A DNA stretch of 64,000 nucleotides from Candidatus Dojkabacteria bacterium HGW-Dojkabacteria-1 (GTDB lineage: Bacteria; Patescibacteriota; Dojkabacteria; SC72): positions 15,594-79,593 of the forward strand of contig PHAO01000001.1 of the NCBI GenBank assembly GCA_002840365.1, given 5' to 3'. Below, one piece after another: positions 11,268 to 41,759 of the stretch (within the stretch, counting starts at the first letter, position 1; each line of letters opens with the position of its first letter). The notes beneath the pieces are model-generated. The model made no database searches, was not told where the DNA came from, and worked only from the letters and a program-made list of their open reading frames with translations. Made by a program: the position numbers and the translations under genes.

Positions 11268-11298
11268 AAAAAAAGAAGGCCCCAAAAGGGGCCTTTTT
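11268..11298. terminator. Intrinsic bidirectional terminator hairpin between pilin paralogs.
   Basis: AAAAAAAG, then GGCCCC-AAAA-GGGGCC, then TTTTT: a perfect 6-bp GC stem flanked by an A-tract and a T-tract. It lies directly 3' of the 119-aa pilin gene on the minus strand. Confidence 0.6.
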
Positions 11299-16840: not shown

Positions 16841-18757
16841 TTGAAATTACTAAAATACAAGAAAATTAAATTTTTCCTACTCTCAACTATTGGTATACTA
16901 ATACTTCCTTTTCTTTTGCTCTTTGCAATAACAGAGTACAACATATACAAATACCCCGCAGAAATAAATCCTTCTGAAGAATTTTGTATTGAGGGATATT
17001 TTCTCTTTCCCAAATTTTACCGTATAGATTCTTCTTTACCTGCAGAAATAGAGATTAACAAAGATGTAAAAATCTTTGAAAAATACAGAATACTAGCAAG
17101 AGAGATATGCCTTCTTCCAACAGAGATACTTGGAGAATCCAATACATATACAATCAGCTTCACATATCTTTCAAATCCTCCGTTGGACATATTTCAAAAA
17201 CAAATAGAAGTAACTACACATGAATATCCAAAGATTGAAGAAATTCAGATTGAAGAAAATGTAAATATAGATCAAGTACTAGAATATGAATTAACATATG
17301 AAAGCTCTTTACTTGAATATTATATATTCTCAGATGAAAAGAGCGTTCAGTGTGAAAAAGAAAGTCTCCTACTCAAATGTAGTATTGGGGAGCTAAATCT
17401 AAACTACGAAGACACTTATGAATTACAACTTGTAAGCATATATGAAGGAAAAGTAGTGAAAATCCTAGATACAAGAATTGTAAATACCCTCTCCTCTCTA
17501 AAGATTGAAAGCTCAAACATTCCATCTAATGGCATATTTCAATCTACTAGCATACAAGAGTTACAACTCTCTCTTAACAAAGAAATTGAGAGTTCCTTTA
17601 GAACAGAAATAACGGATGAAAGTGGGAATGAAATAAGTCATACATCTTCTTTGAATACTAATACCCTCTCTATTTCCCCATCTCAACAATTTCTACAGAA
17701 TACAAAATATTTTTTGAGAATATATGAAATAAAAGCATTAGATGGAAGTCGTCCGGAAGGGGGAGAATTTTTGATTGAATTCTCTATCGATGATGGGCCT
17801 AGTATAAAAAGTACAAACTTAAAAACAGGTTTTAGTAGTACAGGCGATATCGTACTCACCTTCAACCAGGATATAAGTGGTTCACAGGATATAAAGAGAT
17901 ATATTAAATTAAACTCTAGTACTGATTACAATTTCAGTATTAAGGGAAAACAAGTCACACTTAAACCGAATGCAAACTTAATTACATGTGCTAATCAAAG
18001 AGTTGATATTTCAAAAGGAATCATCAGTACAACAGGACTAATCTCCTCGAAAGGCTCTAGTTATACATTCAAAACTAAGTGTGAAAGAGTTGCTAGAATT
18101 GGGACTTCAGTACAAGGTAGAGGAATATTTGCTTCATATTTTGGTAACGGAAGTAAGAAGATCTTACTCTTTGGAGCAATGCACGGCTCAGAAGCAAATA
18201 CCAGAACTACTATGTCAAAGTTAATCGCAGAATTAGAAGTAAACAGCTCTAGAATACCAGAAGATAAGACCGTAATTGTGGTTACAACTTTCAATCCAGA
18301 TGGTATTGCTAATAGAAGTAGATTTAATGCAAATGGGGTTGATTTAAATAGGAACTTTAATTCTTCTAATTGGACACAGGGAACATATTTTAAGGAAAAT
18401 TTCTATCCAACAGGGGGCGGGCAATATCCTTTCTCTGAGCCAGAAAGTATTGCAATCAGAGATTTAGTTATCAGAGAAAATCCATATATCTCAATCTCTT
18501 TTCACTCAGCAGCAGCATATGTAGTACCCTCTAACACATCAAGAAGTGTTGAACTTGGCATACTCTATGCACAGCTCTCAGGTTATAAATATATTGCCCC
18601 TGGTACACAAGGGGCTTTTACATATGATATTACAGGAACATTTGAAGGTTGGGCTGGGCAGAATGGTTACAATGCAATGGTTATTGAATTAGCAAGTGCG
18701 TACAATGATGAGTTCAGTAGAAACAGAAATGCTATTTGGAAAATGATAGAGCAATAA
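16841..18757 (+). CDS. Membrane-anchored M14-family zinc carboxypeptidase (gamma-D-glutamyl-diamino-acid peptidase-like).
   Basis: The C-terminal domain carries the M14 signatures FGAMHGSEANT, TFNPDGIA, VDLNRNF and SFHSAAAYV. An N-terminal transmembrane anchor and about 350 aa of beta-rich spacer precede it. The start codon is TTG. Confidence 0.6.
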   Translation: MKLLKYKKIKFFLLSTIGILILPFLLLFAITEYNIYKYPAEINPSEEFCIEGYFLFPKFYRIDSSLPAEIEINKDVKIFEKYRILAREICLLPTEILGESNTYTISFTYLSNPPLDIFQKQIEVTTHEYPKIEEIQIEENVNIDQVLEYELTYESSLLEYYIFSDEKSVQCEKESLLLKCSIGELNLNYEDTYELQLVSIYEGKVVKILDTRIVNTLSSLKIESSNIPSNGIFQSTSIQELQLSLNKEIESSFRTEITDESGNEISHTSSLNTNTLSISPSQQFLQNTKYFLRIYEIKALDGSRPEGGEFLIEFSIDDGPSIKSTNLKTGFSSTGDIVLTFNQDISGSQDIKRYIKLNSSTDYNFSIKGKQVTLKPNANLITCANQRVDISKGIISTTGLISSKGSSYTFKTKCERVARIGTSVQGRGIFASYFGNGSKKILLFGAMHGSEANTRTTMSKLIAELEVNSSRIPEDKTVIVVTTFNPDGIANRSRFNANGVDLNRNFNSSNWTQGTYFKENFYPTGGGQYPFSEPESIAIRDLVIRENPYISISFHSAAAYVVPSNTSRSVELGILYAQLSGYKYIAPGTQGAFTYDITGTFEGWAGQNGYNAMVIELASAYNDEFSRNRNAIWKMIEQ

Positions 18758-18969
18758 ACAAACTATTGACATCTCAAACTATTAGTATGAGAATATAAAT
18801 AGGTAATTGCCCAAGATCCCCTCTACCTGTTCTTCAATAAAAATAATTTATAGTATAAAAGTTTGTTTGAAGCTTGGACTCTCCTTTTTATTTAATTTGT
18901 TAATTGATATATAAGCATAATAAGGAATATATGCATAAAGGTCTTTGCTAATTTTAATAAAAATTAAAT

Positions 18970-19560
18970 ATGAAACAGATCTTAGCTAGTGCTATGATCA
19001 TCGCCGCTTTAGGAGCTTTAGTGGTGAGTTCAACAGTAGCACTTTTTAGTGATCAGGGTGTCATATCTGGTAATACAGTAGCGACGGGTACACTTGAGTT
19101 GACTTTAAATAAGTCTGCAGGTAAACCATTCACTATTACCGATGGATATCCTGGGTATGAGACCGGTTGGGAATATATGGATATTTACAACACCGGTACA
19201 ATGCCTTTCGAAGCACATGTCTCCTTTGAAAAGACTGCAGGGGATGATGATCTTTACGATGCTTTAATGATTGATATGCACGCTTCGGGTGGAGATGGAC
19301 TTTGTAACACTTCAGATTTTGGTGAGAACCTAATCTATAGTGGATACCTTAAGGACTTTCCATTCCAGAAGTTAGTGAGTGTATATTGGCATTTAGCAAA
19401 TGAAGATGATGCTTCAGGTTCACCAGCAGACAACATTAGAGCTGGATGGACAATGAGAGTTTGTCAGAAGTTAAGTATTGATAGCGGTGCAGGAAATGAG
19501 ATTATGGGTAAATCCGTAACCTTTTCTGAAATCGTAGATGCAATGCAAGACAATGATTAA
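18970..19560 (+). CDS. TasA/camelysin-like secreted protein carrying a SipW-cognate class signal peptide.
   Basis: The N-terminus MKQILASAMIIAALGALVVSSTVALFSDQGVISGNTVATGTLELTL matches the SipW-cognate signal motif (…A.FSD.…N.…GTL.L). It is 196 aa, the same size as CalY/TasA. Confidence 0.6.
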   Translation: MKQILASAMIIAALGALVVSSTVALFSDQGVISGNTVATGTLELTLNKSAGKPFTITDGYPGYETGWEYMDIYNTGTMPFEAHVSFEKTAGDDDLYDALMIDMHASGGDGLCNTSDFGENLIYSGYLKDFPFQKLVSVYWHLANEDDASGSPADNIRAGWTMRVCQKLSIDSGAGNEIMGKSVTFSEIVDAMQDND

Positions 19561-19571
19561 TTCTTAACAGG

Positions 19572-19600
19572 GGCTGCATCGAAAGGTGCAGCCTTTCTTT
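19572..19600 (+). terminator. Intrinsic terminator or attenuator between the TasA-like gene and sipW.
   Basis: GGCTGCA-tcgaaagg-TGCAGCC is followed by TTTCTTT. Confidence 0.55.
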
Positions 19601-19604
19601 AAAG

Positions 19605-20120
19605 ATGAAAAACAATATATTAAATACAATCTATTGGATATTGATTCTTTTTGTCGTACTAGTTGCAATCATTCCAGCAATATCTGCCTTCAATCTTAAA
19701 CTACCTTTTAGTTTGTATTCTGTAGAAACAGGCTCTATGGAACCAGTAATTAAACCTGGTGATTTGATTTTTGTAAAAGAAGAAGAAAGATATCAGGTTG
19801 GAGATATAATCTCTTTTACAGATCAACGAGGCGGAGGAATTACGACAATAACTCACAGAATAGCTAGTATAAATGAAGATGGAACCTTTATGACAAAAGG
19901 AGATGCAAACAGTGGAGTTGATGCAGATTCTGTGAGAAGCGAAGATATCGTAGGTAAGTATTTCTTTAGAATTCCACTACTAGGATATATTATTAGTTTT
20001 GTAAAAACACCCTTAGGATTTTTAATACTAATTGCAATACCAGCAATAATAATTGCGTATGAAGAATTTAGAAAGATTGTTAAACATGTTTCTAGCAAAA
20101 AGGAAAACTACCAGAAGTGA
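19605..20120 (+). CDS. sipW: Signal peptidase I of the SipW (archaeal/eukaryotic, S26B) type.
   Basis: It carries the catalytic Ser box VETGSMEPVIKPGDL, the His box ITHRIASI and KGDANSG. It has an N-terminal transmembrane helix and a C-terminal transmembrane helix. Confidence 0.75.
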   Translation: MKNNILNTIYWILILFVVLVAIIPAISAFNLKLPFSLYSVETGSMEPVIKPGDLIFVKEEERYQVGDIISFTDQRGGGITTITHRIASINEDGTFMTKGDANSGVDADSVRSEDIVGKYFFRIPLLGYIISFVKTPLGFLILIAIPAIIIAYEEFRKIVKHVSSKKENYQK

Positions 20121-20140
20121 AGAGCTTTTCTCACTTCTGG
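20111..20140 (+). terminator. Perfect 10-bp stem-loop overlapping the sipW stop codon. It is a possible terminator but lacks a clear U-tract.
   Basis: CCAGAAGTGA-agagcttttc-TCACTTCTGG. Confidence 0.3.
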
Positions 20141-20204
20141 TGACATGATTTTACCCAATATTATCCCCTAGTACAATACAAGCGAATATTGTATATTGAA
20201 AAAT

Positions 20205-20507
20205 ATGGATGAAAAAACTGAGAAGAAGATAAATTTCCTGTATGGAATATTAATAACCTTAGGAACTATCGTAGTTGGTCTTGTTAGTTACATCTTCTAT
20301 ACCGAAAATACAACCCTATTTAAAGAACCTAATAGATGCGAATACAATGGTTGGGCATATGCAGACAAAGAGGTGTACGATTCTGTAGATGGTTGTAATA
20401 CTTGTTTTTGTTACGATGGGGAGGCAATCTGTACTGAAAAGGCATGTACAAATACCAATGAAGTTAAATATTGTGATGATGGTACAGTTTGCCCCGTAGA
20501 GCTTTAA
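20205..20507 (+). CDS. Small membrane-anchored Cys-rich protein (8 Cys), hypothetical.
   Basis: A single transmembrane helix is followed by ...RCEYNGWAYADKEVYDSVDGCNTCFCYDGEAICTEKACTNTNEVKYCDDGTVCPVEL. The ATG at 20205 is preferred over the upstream TTG. Confidence 0.4.
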   Translation: MDEKTEKKINFLYGILITLGTIVVGLVSYIFYTENTTLFKEPNRCEYNGWAYADKEVYDSVDGCNTCFCYDGEAICTEKACTNTNEVKYCDDGTVCPVEL

Positions 20508-20570
20508 ACTTGCTTTCCCTACTACACTAATGTACCTTTAATGTATATATAAACTTTATTAAAGGAATGT

Positions 20571-21377
20571 ATGGAAAATATAAATGAAAGTATTTCCACC
20601 CCTCCTGAGCAAGTAATTCCACAAGAAGTTAAACCCAAAACAGACAAGAAATCTCTAATACTAGTATTAATAATTGTAGTTCTTTTTGTATTATTGCTAA
20701 TTACTGGTGGGCTTTTTGCATATAAGAGTGGATTACTGAACAATATTTTGAATATACAACAGCAGGAAGATGAAGATATTGAAGAAGAGCAACTAGAAGA
20801 TGAAACTTCCATTATGAAAACAACTTTTGAAGGAGAAACCATAAGTGCTTTGGTACCAGATGGCTGGACAGTAGAAGAATACTACGACGGTGAAGGGACA
20901 GAATCTCTCGTAGCGGGTGTTACATATGAAGGTTTTACTGGTCTGAAGATAAAGAATGGTACAAAGGAAGTCTTTTCTGTTAGGGCCGTTTCTGGAATAG
21001 GCGTTATTGGTTGTCCAATGTATGCAAAATTTGCTGATTACAATCCTACACATTTAGCAGATAATCAAGCAATGGCAAATGAAATTGATGAAACGATGAA
21101 TATCACTGACTACACAACTGCCCAATACGTAGAATTTAAATGGCTAGACAAAACCTTTAGAAGGATTGGCACAGGATATTTTTACGATGACGTACCAAAC
21201 AATGCCTTCTTTGAGGCACCATGTATGCAAGGAATTGTTACATTTACTGGTTTTAAATTTGTTGATTCTTTCGGTTACGAAAGTAATGCATACTTCTTTG
21301 GAGCAGTAGAGAATGTTACTGAGGATGAATTACTAATGGTAGATGAAATACTTGAAAGTATGAAATTAGTTAACTAA
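20571..21377 (+). CDS. Membrane-anchored hypothetical protein with an acidic linker.
   Basis: The N-terminal transmembrane helix is followed by Q/E/D-rich low complexity and then a globular domain. No motif was recognised. Confidence 0.45.
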   Translation: MENINESISTPPEQVIPQEVKPKTDKKSLILVLIIVVLFVLLLITGGLFAYKSGLLNNILNIQQQEDEDIEEEQLEDETSIMKTTFEGETISALVPDGWTVEEYYDGEGTESLVAGVTYEGFTGLKIKNGTKEVFSVRAVSGIGVIGCPMYAKFADYNPTHLADNQAMANEIDETMNITDYTTAQYVEFKWLDKTFRRIGTGYFYDDVPNNAFFEAPCMQGIVTFTGFKFVDSFGYESNAYFFGAVENVTEDELLMVDEILESMKLVN

Positions 21378-21907
21378 TTAAATACCTCTACGAGATCTAC
21401 TTTTACATCAACAGAGGAAGATATTAAATTATCTCCTTTCTCTCTGTCTCTGTACTCATACCATATACCATCTATACAAAGAGCTATATATTTAGCCTCT
21501 ATGAGCATTCCATCAACAACTACCTGATTGTTACTAAGCATATTGTTTGTACGACTATCAGAGCTACCTTTTAGAAAAGTTCTTGAATAACCATCAAGTG
21601 GTCTTTCATATATCCTCGCGAGTACGGAAAGAGGTATTCCCCCTTCTCTTGATACATTAAAGTATGCATATGTAAGACCAGGAATATCCGTCCCTATCTC
21701 TGCAGAGATGTATGAACTAGAATCCTCATATACAGTACCTCTTTTAAGGAAAAAATTGTGTTTAGAGAGTCTTTCAATAGAAAGAAGGACTTCTAATAAT
21801 CTTTGATAGTCTTGGGGGATGTCAGAATCTCTACTCTCTGCATTTTCTAAATATGCATATCTATCTGAGTTTTCATTCTTACTGAAGAAGTTCTCTACAA
21901 GATTCAT
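21374..21907 (-). CDS. Hypothetical protein of 177 aa.
   Basis: It is an open frame convergent with the preceding gene and has no motif. Confidence 0.4.
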   Translation of the reverse strand: MNLVENFFSKNENSDRYAYLENAESRDSDIPQDYQRLLEVLLSIERLSKHNFFLKRGTVYEDSSSYISAEIGTDIPGLTYAYFNVSREGGIPLSVLARIYERPLDGYSRTFLKGSSDSRTNNMLSNNQVVVDGMLIEAKYIALCIDGIWYEYRDREKGDNLISSSVDVKVDLVEVFN

Positions 21908-21930
21908 AATGTTCTAAGAATACCATAAAA

Positions 21931-22340
21931 TGGTGGAGACGGTGGGATTCGAACCCACGTCCAAAAGTTAAGAACTGTGCCATATACAAATGTATTTAGA
22001 TTTATATAGCCAAACAAAGCTAAAAATCTAACAAAAAACTCTGTTTGCTCAGTAATTGTATTCAACTAATATCCCCTACTGACAAGAGATAGTAGCTATA
22101 CCCTAGTAACGACTATCTAACACACTAACTAGAGATAGAAGTGTTAGACACTAACCGAACTTAATCAGCTAGACTTAAGCAAAATTGTAAGCATATAAAG
22201 GTGCAGTGAATGCAGCCCTTAGCTTACTTGCAAAAGCGTTAAGTTTGTTTTCTACACTTATCTGTGCTTTAGTTTTACGAACTAAAAAACGATTTGTGAC
22301 AAACAGCCCCTATGACTTCTGTCGAAAGCCTTACGTCCCC
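21931..22340 (-). ncRNA. ssrA: Transfer-messenger RNA (tmRNA, ssrA).
   Basis: The minus-strand 5' end GGGGACGTAAGGCTTTCGAC and 3' end GTGGGTTCGAATCCCACCGTCTCCACCA match the tmRNA tRNA-like domain consensus. An internal open frame ...ASKLRAAFTAPLYAYNFA-TAA (stop at 22177..22175) gives a Mycoplasma-like ...NFA tag ending. The length is about 410 nt. Confidence 0.85.
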
Positions 22341-24064: not shown

Positions 24065-24607
24065 TTAATACATGAGTTTAGAAAAAGATATTTTTTCATT
24101 CCTCTCTGCGTGAGGAGCACAAACAGTAACTACCCCTTTTTCACTTTGAGATATGTAGTAGCCAGTACCATTTATGGATATGTACAAAGGATCTTGGGGC
24201 ATTACTATTAATTCTTCAGACTCTCCTGAAAGAAATGACATATCTACTAGATCGGAACAATCATATGGACCACTTTTGCAAATCTCATTACCAAAGTTCA
24301 CACACGCATTATCTTTTGGTATTTGTTCTGGTATTTCTCCAAAAGTATTGTTGTATGCACTTACATGGGTAAGTATGGCTGATATATCTGCTGTTCTTTT
24401 CATATTCCTAGCTTCAGCAGCCTCCTTACTTGGATTAATCGCTAGAAGGGCTAAGAGCCCCATTACAACGAAGGCAGAGAGAACTACTAGTATTTCTAGG
24501 ATATTAAATCTCTCATTCTTTGGTGTCTTTTCTTTTTCCTTTTTTACAGGAACAAAGTTTATTGTCTCTACATTTCGGGCAGCTTGATCCATAGCTACAT
24601 AATACAC
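24065..24607 (-). CDS. Type IV pilin-like protein (prepilin-type N-terminal domain) with an atypical leader.
   Basis: ...KNER-FNILEILVVLSAFVVMGLLALLAINPSKEAAEARNMKRTADISAI resembles the class III signal/N-methylation domain (GFTLIELLVV...), with Glu at +5. The leader is long (33 aa) and has R rather than G at -1. Confidence 0.5.
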   Translation of the reverse strand: MYYVAMDQAARNVETINFVPVKKEKEKTPKNERFNILEILVVLSAFVVMGLLALLAINPSKEAAEARNMKRTADISAILTHVSAYNNTFGEIPEQIPKDNACVNFGNEICKSGPYDCSDLVDMSFLSGESEELIVMPQDPLYISINGTGYYISQSEKGVVTVCAPHAERNEKISFSKLMY

Positions 24608-39267: not shown

Positions 39268-39465
39268 TCGTTAATACAAGAGTAGTCACCTTGGAGACAT
39301 TGGGAAGAAATCTTTAAGAAATTAGAACCCACAGAGACCTTACTGTAAAGAAGGTTAATGAGCTCAATATTAATATATTGAGGAAGTAAGGTGGTAACGC
39401 GATATTCGCCCTTACATTAGAGTGTATCTATGGTACGATATATTCTAGTGTGAGGGCCTTTTTAA
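39268..39465 (+). promoter_or_regulatory. T-box riboswitch leader (tRNA-Val responsive) upstream of valS.
   Basis: The conserved T-box sequence AAGGTGGTAACGCG lies at 39388-39402. The Stem I region has AGAGA/GA elements and a candidate specifier CT-GTA-A (the GTA Val codon at 39345-39347). A terminator hairpin GCCCTtACA…TGTgAGGGC plus CTTTTT (39405-39463) overlaps the alternative GTG start. Confidence 0.7.
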
Positions 39466-39482
39466 TATATATACTTAAGTGT

Positions 39483-41759
39483 ATGAAAAAAGAAATACCT
39501 AAAGCTTTTGATTCGAATTCAAAGGAAAAAGAAATATACAAAATTTGGGAAAATTCAGGCTTATGCAGACCAGAGGGAATAGAAGAGCTGCTTAAACAAA
39601 ATGGTTTGAAGATAAAGAGTCCTTTTACAATTGTTCTTCCTCCTCCCAATGCTAATGCTAATTTACATATAGGGCATATGTGTGGGTATTCTTTCCAAGA
39701 TGCTATGGGTAGATATCAAAGAATGACAGGCCATCCTACTCTACTCTTGCCGGGTAAAGATCACGCAGGTATTCAAACAGAGACTTCTTTTACAAAGGTC
39801 TTGAAAGAGAAAGGTATAGACAAGTGGGAAATGGGAAAAGAAGAGTTTTACAAACAGTGCTATGCATTCTCAATGGGAAATGCTTCAAACGCAAGAGAAC
39901 AGGAAAAGAATATCGGTTTAAGTGCAGATTATACAAGGGAATTGTTTACTCTAGATCCTAAATTAACAAAGATTGTCTATGATACCTTTTATAAAATGTA
40001 CAAAGAAGGGTTAATTTACAGAGACAAAAGGATAATAAATCAGTGCCCTAATTGTAAAACTGCCCTTGCAGATATCGATACAGAACATGAAGAAAGGAGA
40101 GGTATTTTTGCATATATTGTTTATCCCTTTGTTGAGGAGGAAGATAGGAAGAGAGCTAAAGAAAAGTTTGGAGTTGAAGGTATTACTGTTGCAACTACTA
40201 GACCAGAGACTATGCTTGGTGATAGTGCAGTTGCTGTTAATCCTCAAGATACAAGATACAAAGAGTTTGTTGGTAAGAAAGTCCTACTCCCTATCGCAAA
40301 TAGGGAAATACCAATAATTGCTGATTCTGATATAGATATTGAACTTGGAACAGGTGCTCTGAAAGTTACACCAGCCCATTCTCCTGTTGATTTTGAAATT
40401 GGTAAAAAGCATGGCCTTGAAATTATCAATGTTATTAATGAAGAGGGAAAAATGACTGGTAGTATACCTGAAAGATTCTTAGGTATGGAAACAGTAGAGT
40501 GCTCAAAAGCTTTAGTTAAGGAATTAAGTGAAAAGGGTTTGTTGATAAAGATTGAGAATATTAAACATGAGATAAGTATTTGTGAAAGATGCAGAACAGC
40601 TATAGAACCCATTATCTCCAACCAATGGTATGTTGATGTTAATCCTTTAGCTAAAAAGGCCTTAGAAGTACTAAAGCAAGGAGAAACGACAGTTATACCT
40701 TCTGGTCAGCAAAAGGCATTAGAACACTTCTTTAACAATATCCAACCATGGTGTATATCAAGACAGCTTTGGTGGGGTCAAAGAATACCTGTTTGGTATA
40801 GTGGTAGTAAAAAATTGCATGATTGGTTAAGAGAGAATGAAGGAAAGGATATTGCTGAATTTAAAAAGGAGACTGGTGAAGAAGCTCGGGGAACGGGGGA
40901 AATATATCTTGGAGAAAATGCCCCTGATGATTTTGGAATATGGGAAGCTGAAGAAGATATGTTTGATACTTGGTTTAGTTCTGGGCAATGGCCATACTCC
41001 ACTTTGGGAGGTATAGGGGGAGAGGATTACAAAAAATACTATCCTACTCAAGTTATGGAAACAGCTAGGGATATTCTTTTCTGGTGGGTTGCAAGAATGA
41101 TGATGATGGGTATATATACAACAGGAAAGACACCATTTTCTACAGTCTTTCTACATGGCTTAATTCTTGCTGCTGATGGTAGTAAGATGTCAAAGTCTAA
41201 AGGTAATGGTGTTGAACCTACCGAAGTTATTAACAAATATGGAGCAGATGCTCTACGTCTTTGGTACTTTAGTGATGCACTACCAGGGTCTAATGCACCT
41301 GTTAGAGAAGAAAAGATAAAGGGAAATAGGAATTTTGTTAACAAGATATGGAATGCTTCCAGATTTATCTTGATGAATATAGATGAATCAGAATTAGAAA
41401 AAATATCTAATCATGAATTAGATATGTCTTTGTCAAGAATTAAAGAAACTCAAGAGCATACTATAAAGGTATTAAAATATCTTGAGAAATTCCAATTTAA
41501 TCTAGGAGCGGAAGCTATTAGAGAATTCTTTTGGCATCAGCTATGTGATATATGGATAGAGGAAATTAAGGGAGAGATAAAGGATGAGGAAATAGGGTCT
41601 GAGGAAAGAGTTGAGAAACTAAGTGAATTACTTTGGATTCTTAAGAGTAACTTAAAGATTATGCACCCATTTGTTCCTTTCATTACGGAATCAGTCTGGC
41701 AAGAATTAGTAAATCTAGAGCTTGCAGAGGGGATATTAATGGGAGAGCAGATATCATAA
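39483..41759 (+). CDS. valS: Valine--tRNA ligase (short form).
   Basis: It carries the class I HIGH motif (PNANANLHIGH) and the KMSKS motif (GSKMSKSKGN), together with the editing domain. The ATG at 39483 is preferred over the GTG at 39450, which lies inside the T-box terminator. Confidence 0.85.
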   Translation: MKKEIPKAFDSNSKEKEIYKIWENSGLCRPEGIEELLKQNGLKIKSPFTIVLPPPNANANLHIGHMCGYSFQDAMGRYQRMTGHPTLLLPGKDHAGIQTETSFTKVLKEKGIDKWEMGKEEFYKQCYAFSMGNASNAREQEKNIGLSADYTRELFTLDPKLTKIVYDTFYKMYKEGLIYRDKRIINQCPNCKTALADIDTEHEERRGIFAYIVYPFVEEEDRKRAKEKFGVEGITVATTRPETMLGDSAVAVNPQDTRYKEFVGKKVLLPIANREIPIIADSDIDIELGTGALKVTPAHSPVDFEIGKKHGLEIINVINEEGKMTGSIPERFLGMETVECSKALVKELSEKGLLIKIENIKHEISICERCRTAIEPIISNQWYVDVNPLAKKALEVLKQGETTVIPSGQQKALEHFFNNIQPWCISRQLWWGQRIPVWYSGSKKLHDWLRENEGKDIAEFKKETGEEARGTGEIYLGENAPDDFGIWEAEEDMFDTWFSSGQWPYSTLGGIGGEDYKKYYPTQVMETARDILFWWVARMMMMGIYTTGKTPFSTVFLHGLILAADGSKMSKSKGNGVEPTEVINKYGADALRLWYFSDALPGSNAPVREEKIKGNRNFVNKIWNASRFILMNIDESELEKISNHELDMSLSRIKETQEHTIKVLKYLEKFQFNLGAEAIREFFWHQLCDIWIEEIKGEIKDEEIGSEERVEKLSELLWILKSNLKIMHPFVPFITESVWQELVNLELAEGILMGEQIS

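Follow-up and report, generated by a model that had tools for sequence, protein, structure and literature searches.

We analysed a 64,000-nucleotide stretch of the genome of Candidatus Dojkabacteria bacterium HGW-Dojkabacteria-1 (contig PHAO01000001.1, positions 15,594 to 79,593 of the forward strand), hereafter called the window, which is AT-rich (~34% GC). Dojkabacteria, formerly WS6, are a candidate phylum of the Candidate Phyla Radiation (CPR). The locus of interest consists of two adjacent genes on the + strand, one encoding a protein of 196 residues (18970-19560) and the other a signal peptidase of 171 residues (19605-20120), with a conserved RNA hairpin between them (19569-19596). We interpret them as a TasA-like fibre subunit and the SipW-type peptidase that would process it. 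The 196-residue protein is 100% identical to CVU76_00180 of this same organism, which is annotated as a “hypothetical protein.” The gene order on the + strand is M14 carboxypeptidase, subunit, peptidase, small Cys-rich protein, and a protein of 268 residues. The last four of these open reading frames (ORFs) had been delineated in a preliminary description of this DNA, and we recovered all of them with the same boundaries, on the + strand. For the comparative analysis we collected 77 homologues of the subunit, of which 36 were aligned, together with related loci (labeled L0xx), 15 of them taken from genome assemblies and 29 from metagenomes. Few of the homologues carry a source name, and those that do are mostly from Dojkabacteria/WS6. 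For some, the existing annotation reads “TasA family protein,” “SipW-dependent-type signal peptide-containing protein,” or “predicted ... peptide with SipW-like signal peptide.”

The N-terminal part of the 196-residue protein is typical of substrates of SipW. It matches TIGR04088, the SipW-cognate signal, along residues 11-42 (22.5 bits, cut-off 19), which bears out what the preliminary description had proposed, and all 36 aligned relatives match this model as well. The other half of the profile check suggested there fell short: the score against PF12389 (Peptidase_M73, the TasA/camelysin family) is 20.9 bits for a gathering score of 22.5, and it covers residues 2-79 only. Among the aligned relatives, 32 of 36 match PF12389 at E<=0.01, with a best value of 3.6e-12. 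One remote relative, P0151, can be aligned with the subunit profile along its full length and matches PF12389 above threshold (30.9 bits, positions 23-191 of 196), and it thus provides a transitive full-length link between the subunit and this family. With cut-offs of E<=1e-30, E<=1e-10, and E<=1e-3, an exhaustive search with the subunit profile retrieved 17, 231, and 2889 clusters, respectively. Judged by these profiles, the subunit belongs to a small subfamily inside a large superfamily.

The predicted signal peptide spans residues 1-24 (18970-19041), with a predicted cleavage between Ala24 and Leu25 (T-V-A24/L25-F-S-D). The residues around this site are nearly fixed in the family: Ala is found at -1 in 36/36 sequences and Thr at -3 in 34/36, while past the cleavage there is Phe at +2 in 35/36 (Tyr once) and Asp or Glu at +4 in 34/36. 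The end of the signal peptide and the 20 residues that follow are the most strongly conserved part of the alignment. This post-cleavage stretch (approximately residues 25-41, 19042-19092) is a putative donor strand. The remainder of the protein would form a jelly-roll or beta-sandwich core, which includes two Cys that are invariant in the family (C112 and C165) and a conserved acidic C terminus (QDND). The predicted mature subunit has 172 residues, an isoelectric point (pI) of 4.13, and 15.7% of Asp plus Glu. The residues at -3, -1, +2, and +4 and the acidity of the mature protein match the donor-strand features of TasA and AbpX (PMC9674648; bioRxiv 10.64898/2026.01.04.697558). Residues 28-38 of Bacillus subtilis TasA, the first 11 past the cleavage, form the donor strand and complete the next subunit's sheet, and their deletion abolishes the fibres (PMC9674648).

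The structural model points in the same direction. AlphaFold2 predicts a beta-sandwich (mean predicted local distance difference test [pLDDT] of 81, predicted template-modelling score of 0.74) in which residues 17-37 have pLDDT values below 50 and are disordered, as would be expected of a strand that becomes ordered only in the polymer. The comparison of this model with TasA that had been suggested at the outset gave a clear outcome: the best Foldseek match in the PDB is the TasA fibre solved by cryo-electron microscopy (8AUR_A; E 9.3e-8, probability 1.00, TMq 0.57). Ranked below it are the donor-strand-complemented filaments FimG and other chaperone-usher pilins, the archaeal bundling pilus (7UEG), the Sulfolobus thread (7PNB), and CanA. 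At the level of the model, the jelly-roll/beta-sandwich fold of the subunit resembles that of TasA.

Does the 196-residue protein polymerise? It could be processed by SipW and yet remain a monomeric matrix, coat, or antimicrobial protein, or be a protease of the camelysin type. The name of the Pfam family (Peptidase_M73/camelysin) invites this explanation, a stable monomeric form of TasA exists (PMC9674648), the two invariant Cys suggest a globular domain stabilised by a disulfide, and the window has no TapA-like nucleator. However, neither HExxH nor any other metalloprotease motif is present in the protein, TasA in its fibre form ranks first among the fold matches and is followed by donor-strand pilins, and the part of the protein under the strongest conservation is precisely the post-cleavage strand with its aromatic residue at +2 and acidic residue at +4. 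We therefore regard a non-polymerising protein as improbable and favour a fibre subunit.

The second gene encodes a signal peptidase I of the S26B type. The protein matches TIGR02228 (archaeal-type signal peptidase) with 110 bits, well above the cut-off of 51.85, while its score for TIGR02227 (bacterial LepB-type, S26A) is 33 bits, under the cut-off of 47. This agrees with the preliminary description, which had recognised an S26B enzyme with a Ser box, a His box, and a KGDAN motif, and it speaks against a LepB-type peptidase. The search of PDB sequences retrieved SEC11A/C alone (E 7e-6), and the segments GSMEP, THRI, and KGDAN of the peptidase align with GSMEP, VHRV, and KGDNN of human SEC11A. 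The catalytic boxes are thus those with Ser and His (not Lys), accompanied by the GDxN box. The putative catalytic residues are Ser44 (19734-19736) in the GSMEP box and His84 (19854-19856) in the THRI box, and the GDAN box is at residues 99-102. Judged by sequence, the protein has two hydrophobic segments, one N-terminal and one C-terminal. Against the equivalog model of Bacillus SipW (NF046067) it scores 100.8 bits, under the cut-off of 190, and the profile scores indicate a peptidase of the same type as Bacillus SipW that is not its equivalog. Regular-expression scans of the 64-kb window found no other S26 peptidase (SMxP plus GDN boxes) and no ORF with the cognate signal motif other than the subunit.

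The association between these two genes is conserved. A homologue of sipW lies 3' of the subunit gene, on the same strand, in 43/43 of the loci that extend beyond the subunit gene (the truncated L034 was left out of the count), and the pairing is kept down to 46% identity between subunits. These loci were collected from the subunit side, and the count thus describes relatives of the substrate. It supports the proposal of the preliminary description that a SipW-type S26B peptidase is paired here with a TasA-like cognate substrate. The hairpin accompanies the two genes throughout the family.

This hairpin, GGGGCTGCAUC-GAAA-GGUGCAGCCUU, has a 12-bp stem and a GAAA loop. It starts 9 nucleotides past the stop codon of the subunit gene, ends 9 nucleotides ahead of the ATG of sipW, and folds with -20.1 kcal/mol (z = -3.9; none of 200 shuffled sequences was as stable). 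A UUUCUUU tract (TTTCTTT in the DNA, 19594-19600) follows directly and overlaps its 3' end. The inverted repeat GGCTGCA..TGCAGCC has a single copy in the 64-kb window, where 0 are expected. It was found once, at the same position, in the 15 fetched loci, and in 31/31 non-redundant loci a hairpin with a folding energy of -13 to -34 kcal/mol starts 0-45 nucleotides past the subunit stop codon. The loop varies in sequence and in length (3-16 nucleotides) among relatives, while ~20/24 distinct hairpins keep the sequence of the arm core (G-Y-T-G-C / G-C-A-R-C). The stem shows compensatory changes, e.g., GGCTGTA/TACAGCC in L008 and GGCTGCG/CGCAGCC in L017. In an alignment restricted to the arms, with the loops replaced by a constant tetraloop, two-sided changes occur at 10/11 stem pairs and in 42 cells, compared with 14.1 +/- 2.7 in shuffled alignments (0/500) and 0-9 cells in a control with slid partners. 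Among the other long ORFs of the window and of seven loci, only 5/92 have a hairpin of -12.9 kcal/mol or lower within 50 nucleotides of the stop codon, which indicates that the structure is specific to the subunit gene. In this survey, the sole other gene of the window with a very strong hairpin in this interval is at 39450-41759 (+), with -25.8 kcal/mol.

The conservation of the arm core could also be explained by an element acting as DNA, either the operator of a dimeric regulator or a mobile repeat, for example of the REP (repetitive extragenic palindromic) type. We find this highly improbable and have set aside both a generic genomic repeat and an operator. A spacing between arms that varies from 3 to 16 nucleotides is ill-suited to a dimeric DNA-binding protein, the element has one copy per locus at a fixed position instead of being dispersed, and the flanking positions of the stem covary so that pairing is kept. 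The scan of Rfam at gathering thresholds found no family at the hairpin, and returned only the transfer-messenger RNA (tmRNA) and tRNAs.

We read the hairpin as a selected and conserved RNA element that may uncouple the expression of the subunit from that of the peptidase. Lying right after the stop codon of the subunit gene, it would most likely lift the expression of the subunit above that of the peptidase, which could be achieved by partial termination of transcription, by protecting the subunit mRNA at its 3' end, or by occlusion of the translation initiation of sipW, 9 nucleotides downstream. The preliminary description had taken it for a terminator, consistent with stoichiometric attenuation. 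The hairpin itself is real and conserved, but its identification as a terminator is only partly supported: the TTTCTTT tract after the hairpin of the window fits a classical intrinsic terminator, and most relatives lack such a tail. A role as stoichiometric attenuator is plausible. A simple scan of the window for terminators did not list the hairpin, probably because G-T pairs that lengthen the stem consume the T-tract.

Alternatively, the hairpin could act after transcription, as a stabiliser of the 3' end of a processed subunit mRNA and/or as a mask over the ribosome-binding region of sipW, or it could be a terminator without a tail that falls outside the rule established for E. coli. Relatives mostly lack the T-tail while keeping the stem by compensatory changes, and the stem in the window ends very close to the start codon of sipW. 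Furthermore, canonical hairpin-plus-T terminators are present elsewhere in the same genome (e.g., 11276-11295), so that the absence of the tail in relatives looks meaningful. The TTTCTTT tract in the window itself speaks against this alternative. We consider the alternative a serious contender, at somewhat less than even odds.

Taken together, these data lead us to propose, with a probability of roughly 75%, that the locus is a minimal two-gene module for extracellular fibres of the TasA superfamily. This interpretation builds on the genes and on the predicted structure of a monomer. The precursor would be exported by Sec, as suggested by the precedents of Bacillus TasA and of the archaeal AbpA and AbpX. 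The neighboring SipW would then cut it after the invariant Ala24 (T-V-A/L-F-S-D), freeing an N-terminal strand of amphipathic character that is aromatic at +2 and acidic at +4. Once free, this strand could insert into the open beta-sheet of the next subunit, i.e., donor-strand complementation. The outcome would be acidic fibres outside the cell (pI about 4.1), possibly dependent on calcium. The idea of an extracellular fibre system in an organism with a small genome, already put forward in the preliminary description, is therefore probably right as far as the core pair is concerned.

Several observations weigh against this proposal and its regulatory part. The PF12389 score of the subunit is just under the gathering threshold and the match is limited to its residues 2-79. 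When searched against the sequences of the PDB, the profile of the subunit family retrieved no TasA, CalY, or Abp chain and gave a chance match to a Fic domain (E 0.62). By this measure, the body of the subunit has diverged too far to be assigned to solved structures by sequence. In the 64-kb window we found neither a TapA-like nucleator nor an anchor. As for the hairpin, the T-rich tail is not conserved and is mostly missing in relatives, and the percentage of the stem that is paired is partly circular, since folding of the individual sequences was used to pick the arms. This circularity does not extend to the compensatory pattern at homologous stem positions.

The closest points of comparison are the known systems of the superfamily. 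The tapA-sipW-tasA locus of B. subtilis (8AUR; PMC9674648, PMC10151520) also has an S26B SipW with two hydrophobic segments encoded beside its substrate, and TasA shares with the subunit described here the TIGR04088 signal, a donor strand (putative in the subunit) that has Phe at position +2 and Asp at +4, and the matching beta-sandwich. The differences are nevertheless considerable. Here, the subunit gene precedes sipW and there is no TapA. The mature subunit has 172 residues, versus about 234 in TasA, has two invariant Cys, and is not detectably similar to TasA in the sequence of its body. The peptidase is below the cut-off of the SipW equivalog (100.8 vs 190 bits). Finally, the conserved intergenic hairpin and the CPR host set this locus apart from that of B. 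subtilis.

In its organisation, the locus matches the one of AbpX. The genes of TasA, AbpA, TafE, and AbpX often adjoin one encoding signal peptidase I, and Pyrodictium abyssi has a locus described as “minimalistic,” made of the AbpX subunit and a TIGR02228 peptidase (bioRxiv 10.64898/2026.01.04.697558). There too, the gene of the subunit is followed directly by that of the peptidase on the same strand, and the mature subunit is acidic (pI about 4, ~15% Asp plus Glu) and its donor strand is aromatic at +2 and acidic at +4. In contrast, the peptidase of that system is reported to have ten transmembrane segments, whereas the one in the window, with its 171 residues, has two hydrophobic segments as judged by sequence. 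Archaeal AbpA (7UEG; PMC9245690) and the Sulfolobus threads (7PNB) are also donor-strand-complemented jelly-roll filaments of the TasA superfamily and are among the fold matches, with much weaker scores (E about 1e-3, TMq about 0.3). Unlike the subunit gene of the window, AbpA has no dedicated peptidase gene nearby. CalY of Bacillus cereus is a matrix fibre protein. The model of its family (CalY/camelysin, PF12389) has the same length as the subunit, 196 residues, and is matched by residues 2-79, but with a score (20.9 bits) that does not reach the gathering score of 22.5, and the subunit lacks the metalloprotease motif.

How much of this is new? Homologues of PF12389 are known to occur in Patescibacteria (Wang et al. 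2022; PMC9245690), annotation pipelines already use the “TasA family” name, and loci with a subunit and a peptidase have been described in the TasA superfamily. Hence, current concepts are not changed by the module, given that TasA homologues of Patescibacteria had been reported and named. What distinguishes the present locus is the gene order, the lack of TapA, the short subunit with a possible disulfide bond, the conserved intergenic hairpin, and the CPR host. Searches of the literature for SipW together with CPR, and for Dojkabacteria together with signal peptidase, retrieved nothing. The locus extends the theme of a subunit with a dedicated S26B peptidase, seen in the TasA superfamily, to another deep bacterial lineage, and the hairpin offers a clean natural case in which to study unequal expression within a two-gene operon in organisms for which little regulation is known.

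The possible functions of such fibres deserve attention. The genomes of CPR bacteria, or Patescibacteria, are tiny, and these organisms are regarded as living in attachment to other cells. To our knowledge, little has been described of their surface structures apart from type IV pili. A TasA-type module of two genes, probably highly expressed, would be a concrete and easily testable candidate for adhesion or for a matrix. One may go further and speculate that Dojkabacteria and neighboring CPR lineages build donor-strand fibres from a two-gene kit that dispenses with a TapA-like nucleator or anchor, in which the covarying and lineage-specific hairpin sets the ratio of subunit to peptidase, and that these fibres attach the cells, presumably dependent on a host, to partners or form a matrix. 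In this full form the scenario is rather unlikely, and we offer it as a lead.

Downstream of sipW, the + strand encodes two more proteins that are anchored in the membrane, as the preliminary description had noted. A gene at 20205-20507 encodes a Cys-rich mini-protein of 100 residues. Its ORF opens at a TTG (20196), and the ATG at 20205, which is used by relatives and by gene callers, is the more likely start. The protein has 8 Cys, six of which are invariant across 24 members of the family, in a mini-domain of the CxxCxC type (CEYNGW...DGCNTCFC..G...CT..AC). This domain resembles eukaryotic VWC, pacifastin, and fibronectin-I modules at sub-threshold scores: 26.6 bits for Pacifastin_I (<27.9), 19.5 bits for VWC (<27.6), and also FnI. 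Many relatives carry precomputed Pacifastin/VWC matches. Among the 44 homologues few have a source name, all of these being Dojkabacteria, to which the family appears to be restricted, and the domain is sometimes duplicated. The second gene (20571-21377) encodes a single-pass membrane protein of 268 residues, in which the AlphaFold2 model (pLDDT 71.6) shows one transmembrane helix, a linker that is acidic and disordered, and, at the C terminus, an alpha/beta domain of ~190 residues. It matches no family in Pfam or NCBIfam. The few of its 14 homologues with a source name are likewise all from Dojkabacteria. Its model has no significant match among the folds of the PDB, the best being PsbP (E 0.03, probability 0.33).

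It had been suggested that these two proteins could be additional components of the fibres. In the strongest version of this idea, the four genes would be a single fibre operon in which the Cys-rich and the acidic protein provide the anchor, the tip, or the nucleator in place of TapA. Both genes are on the same strand with short gaps, both products have extracellular domains anchored in the membrane, they occur together 3' of sipW in ~9 loci, and the window holds no other candidate for an anchor. However, neither protein matches TIGR04088, and the model of the acidic protein has no TasA-, TapA-, or pilin-like fold match. Their linkage to the pair is confined to a subclade: the Cys-rich gene accompanies it in ~10/43 loci, both genes are missing from L009 and L023 (whose subunits are 74% identical) and from all the more distant loci, and in L018 the acidic protein is encoded on the other strand. 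Between these genes and sipW there are also a palindromic hairpin and a promoter-like site. Finally, the extra components found in other relatives carry a cognate-type motif or an LPXTG anchor. We thus see little prospect for a four-gene operon and did not retain the suggestion that the two proteins are fibre components; they are membrane-anchored surface proteins that probably neighbor the fibre system without being part of it.

The palindromic hairpin just mentioned has a 12-bp stem (20110-20141) and overlaps the stop codon of sipW. A scan for terminator-like structures places it on the - strand, but a palindrome can fold on either one. The two-gene unit may end at this hairpin. At the other side of the module, the best promoter-like match of the region (TTGACA-17-GAGAAT, 10/12 positions) is on the + strand at 18766-18794, ~175 nucleotides upstream of the start codon of the subunit. 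Its -35 box, CTATTGACA, and the spacing are kept in 8 related loci, and it is a candidate promoter of the module. The leader that follows (18795-18969, ~175 nucleotides) has conserved blocks in close relatives, such as TATTTAAATTTTTTAATT and GCATAATAAGGAATATATGC (a short inverted repeat), and may be a regulatory 5' untranslated region. Further upstream is the gene of the M14 carboxypeptidase (16841-18757, + strand), which starts with TTG and encodes a membrane-anchored protein with Big_5 Ig-like domains and an M14/MpaA-like carboxypeptidase domain. We discarded it as a component of the fibre module: of the loci fetched, only the near-identical contigs and L008 have it in this upstream position, and the conserved promoter-like site separates it from the subunit gene.

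The loci of relatives reveal a diversity of proteins around sipW. In five of them (L010, L011, L024, L019, and L021) there are extra proteins with a cognate-like motif near the N terminus, which TIGR04088 confirmed in L021 and did not match in L010 and L019. In L019 and L039, a protein of 498 residues is encoded between the subunit gene and sipW; its cognate-like N-terminal motif, recognised by eye only, has no TIGR04088 match, and in L019 (5785-7281) it has a long Cys-rich C-terminal region. Several proteins with cognate-type motifs surround one sipW in L019 (5785-7281) and L021 (179-799 and 2513-3298), and a Laminin_G_3/concanavalin-like protein and a second PF12389 paralogue are among them. 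The set of surface proteins that SipW serves in CPR seems to be variable. An ORF of 209-213 residues overlaps the 3' end of sipW in L010 (6130-6771), L011 (6116-6745), and L024 (1464-2105). Its product starts with a membrane segment, carries a divergent cognate-like motif (FSWYTYTAEIPNMRASTGTLDLGI), matches nothing in Pfam or NCBIfam, and is not found in the window. It could be a minor or TapA-like subunit. Beta-rich proteins encoded downstream of sipW in L048 (5739-6521) and L035 (1636-2301) end with LPSTG, a hydrophobic segment, and a basic tail, i.e., a sortase-type anchor. By analogy with what has been reported for bacterial AbpX loci, they could be fibre bases anchored to the cell wall. 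The window has no equivalent of these LPSTG-type proteins.

Some distant relatives have fused the peptidase to other domains (L043:469-1728 on the + strand, L048:4670-5851, and L043:4690-5487). In these proteins, the C-terminal membrane segment of a SipW-type peptidase is followed by a second hydrophobic stretch and a SipW-cognate motif. The fusion scored in L043 matches TIGR02228 with 87 bits, TIGR04088 with 25.3 bits (residues 214-241), and the Lamin Tail Domain with 53.6 bits. A peptidase of this type appears to carry its own substrate signal, and the order of the domains suggests that it might process itself and release its surface domain.

The remaining observations concern the region beyond the 268-residue protein. 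A tmRNA gene (21931-22340, - strand, 116 bits) lies just past it and is followed on the same strand by an ORF of 177 residues of no known family (region 21374-22340). An ORF of 180 residues on the - strand (24065-24607) has an N terminus, ...RFNILEILVVLSAFVVMGLL..., that resembles the prepilin motif of type IV pilins and pseudopilins. At ~3 kb from the fibre module, it points to another type of surface filament encoded close by.

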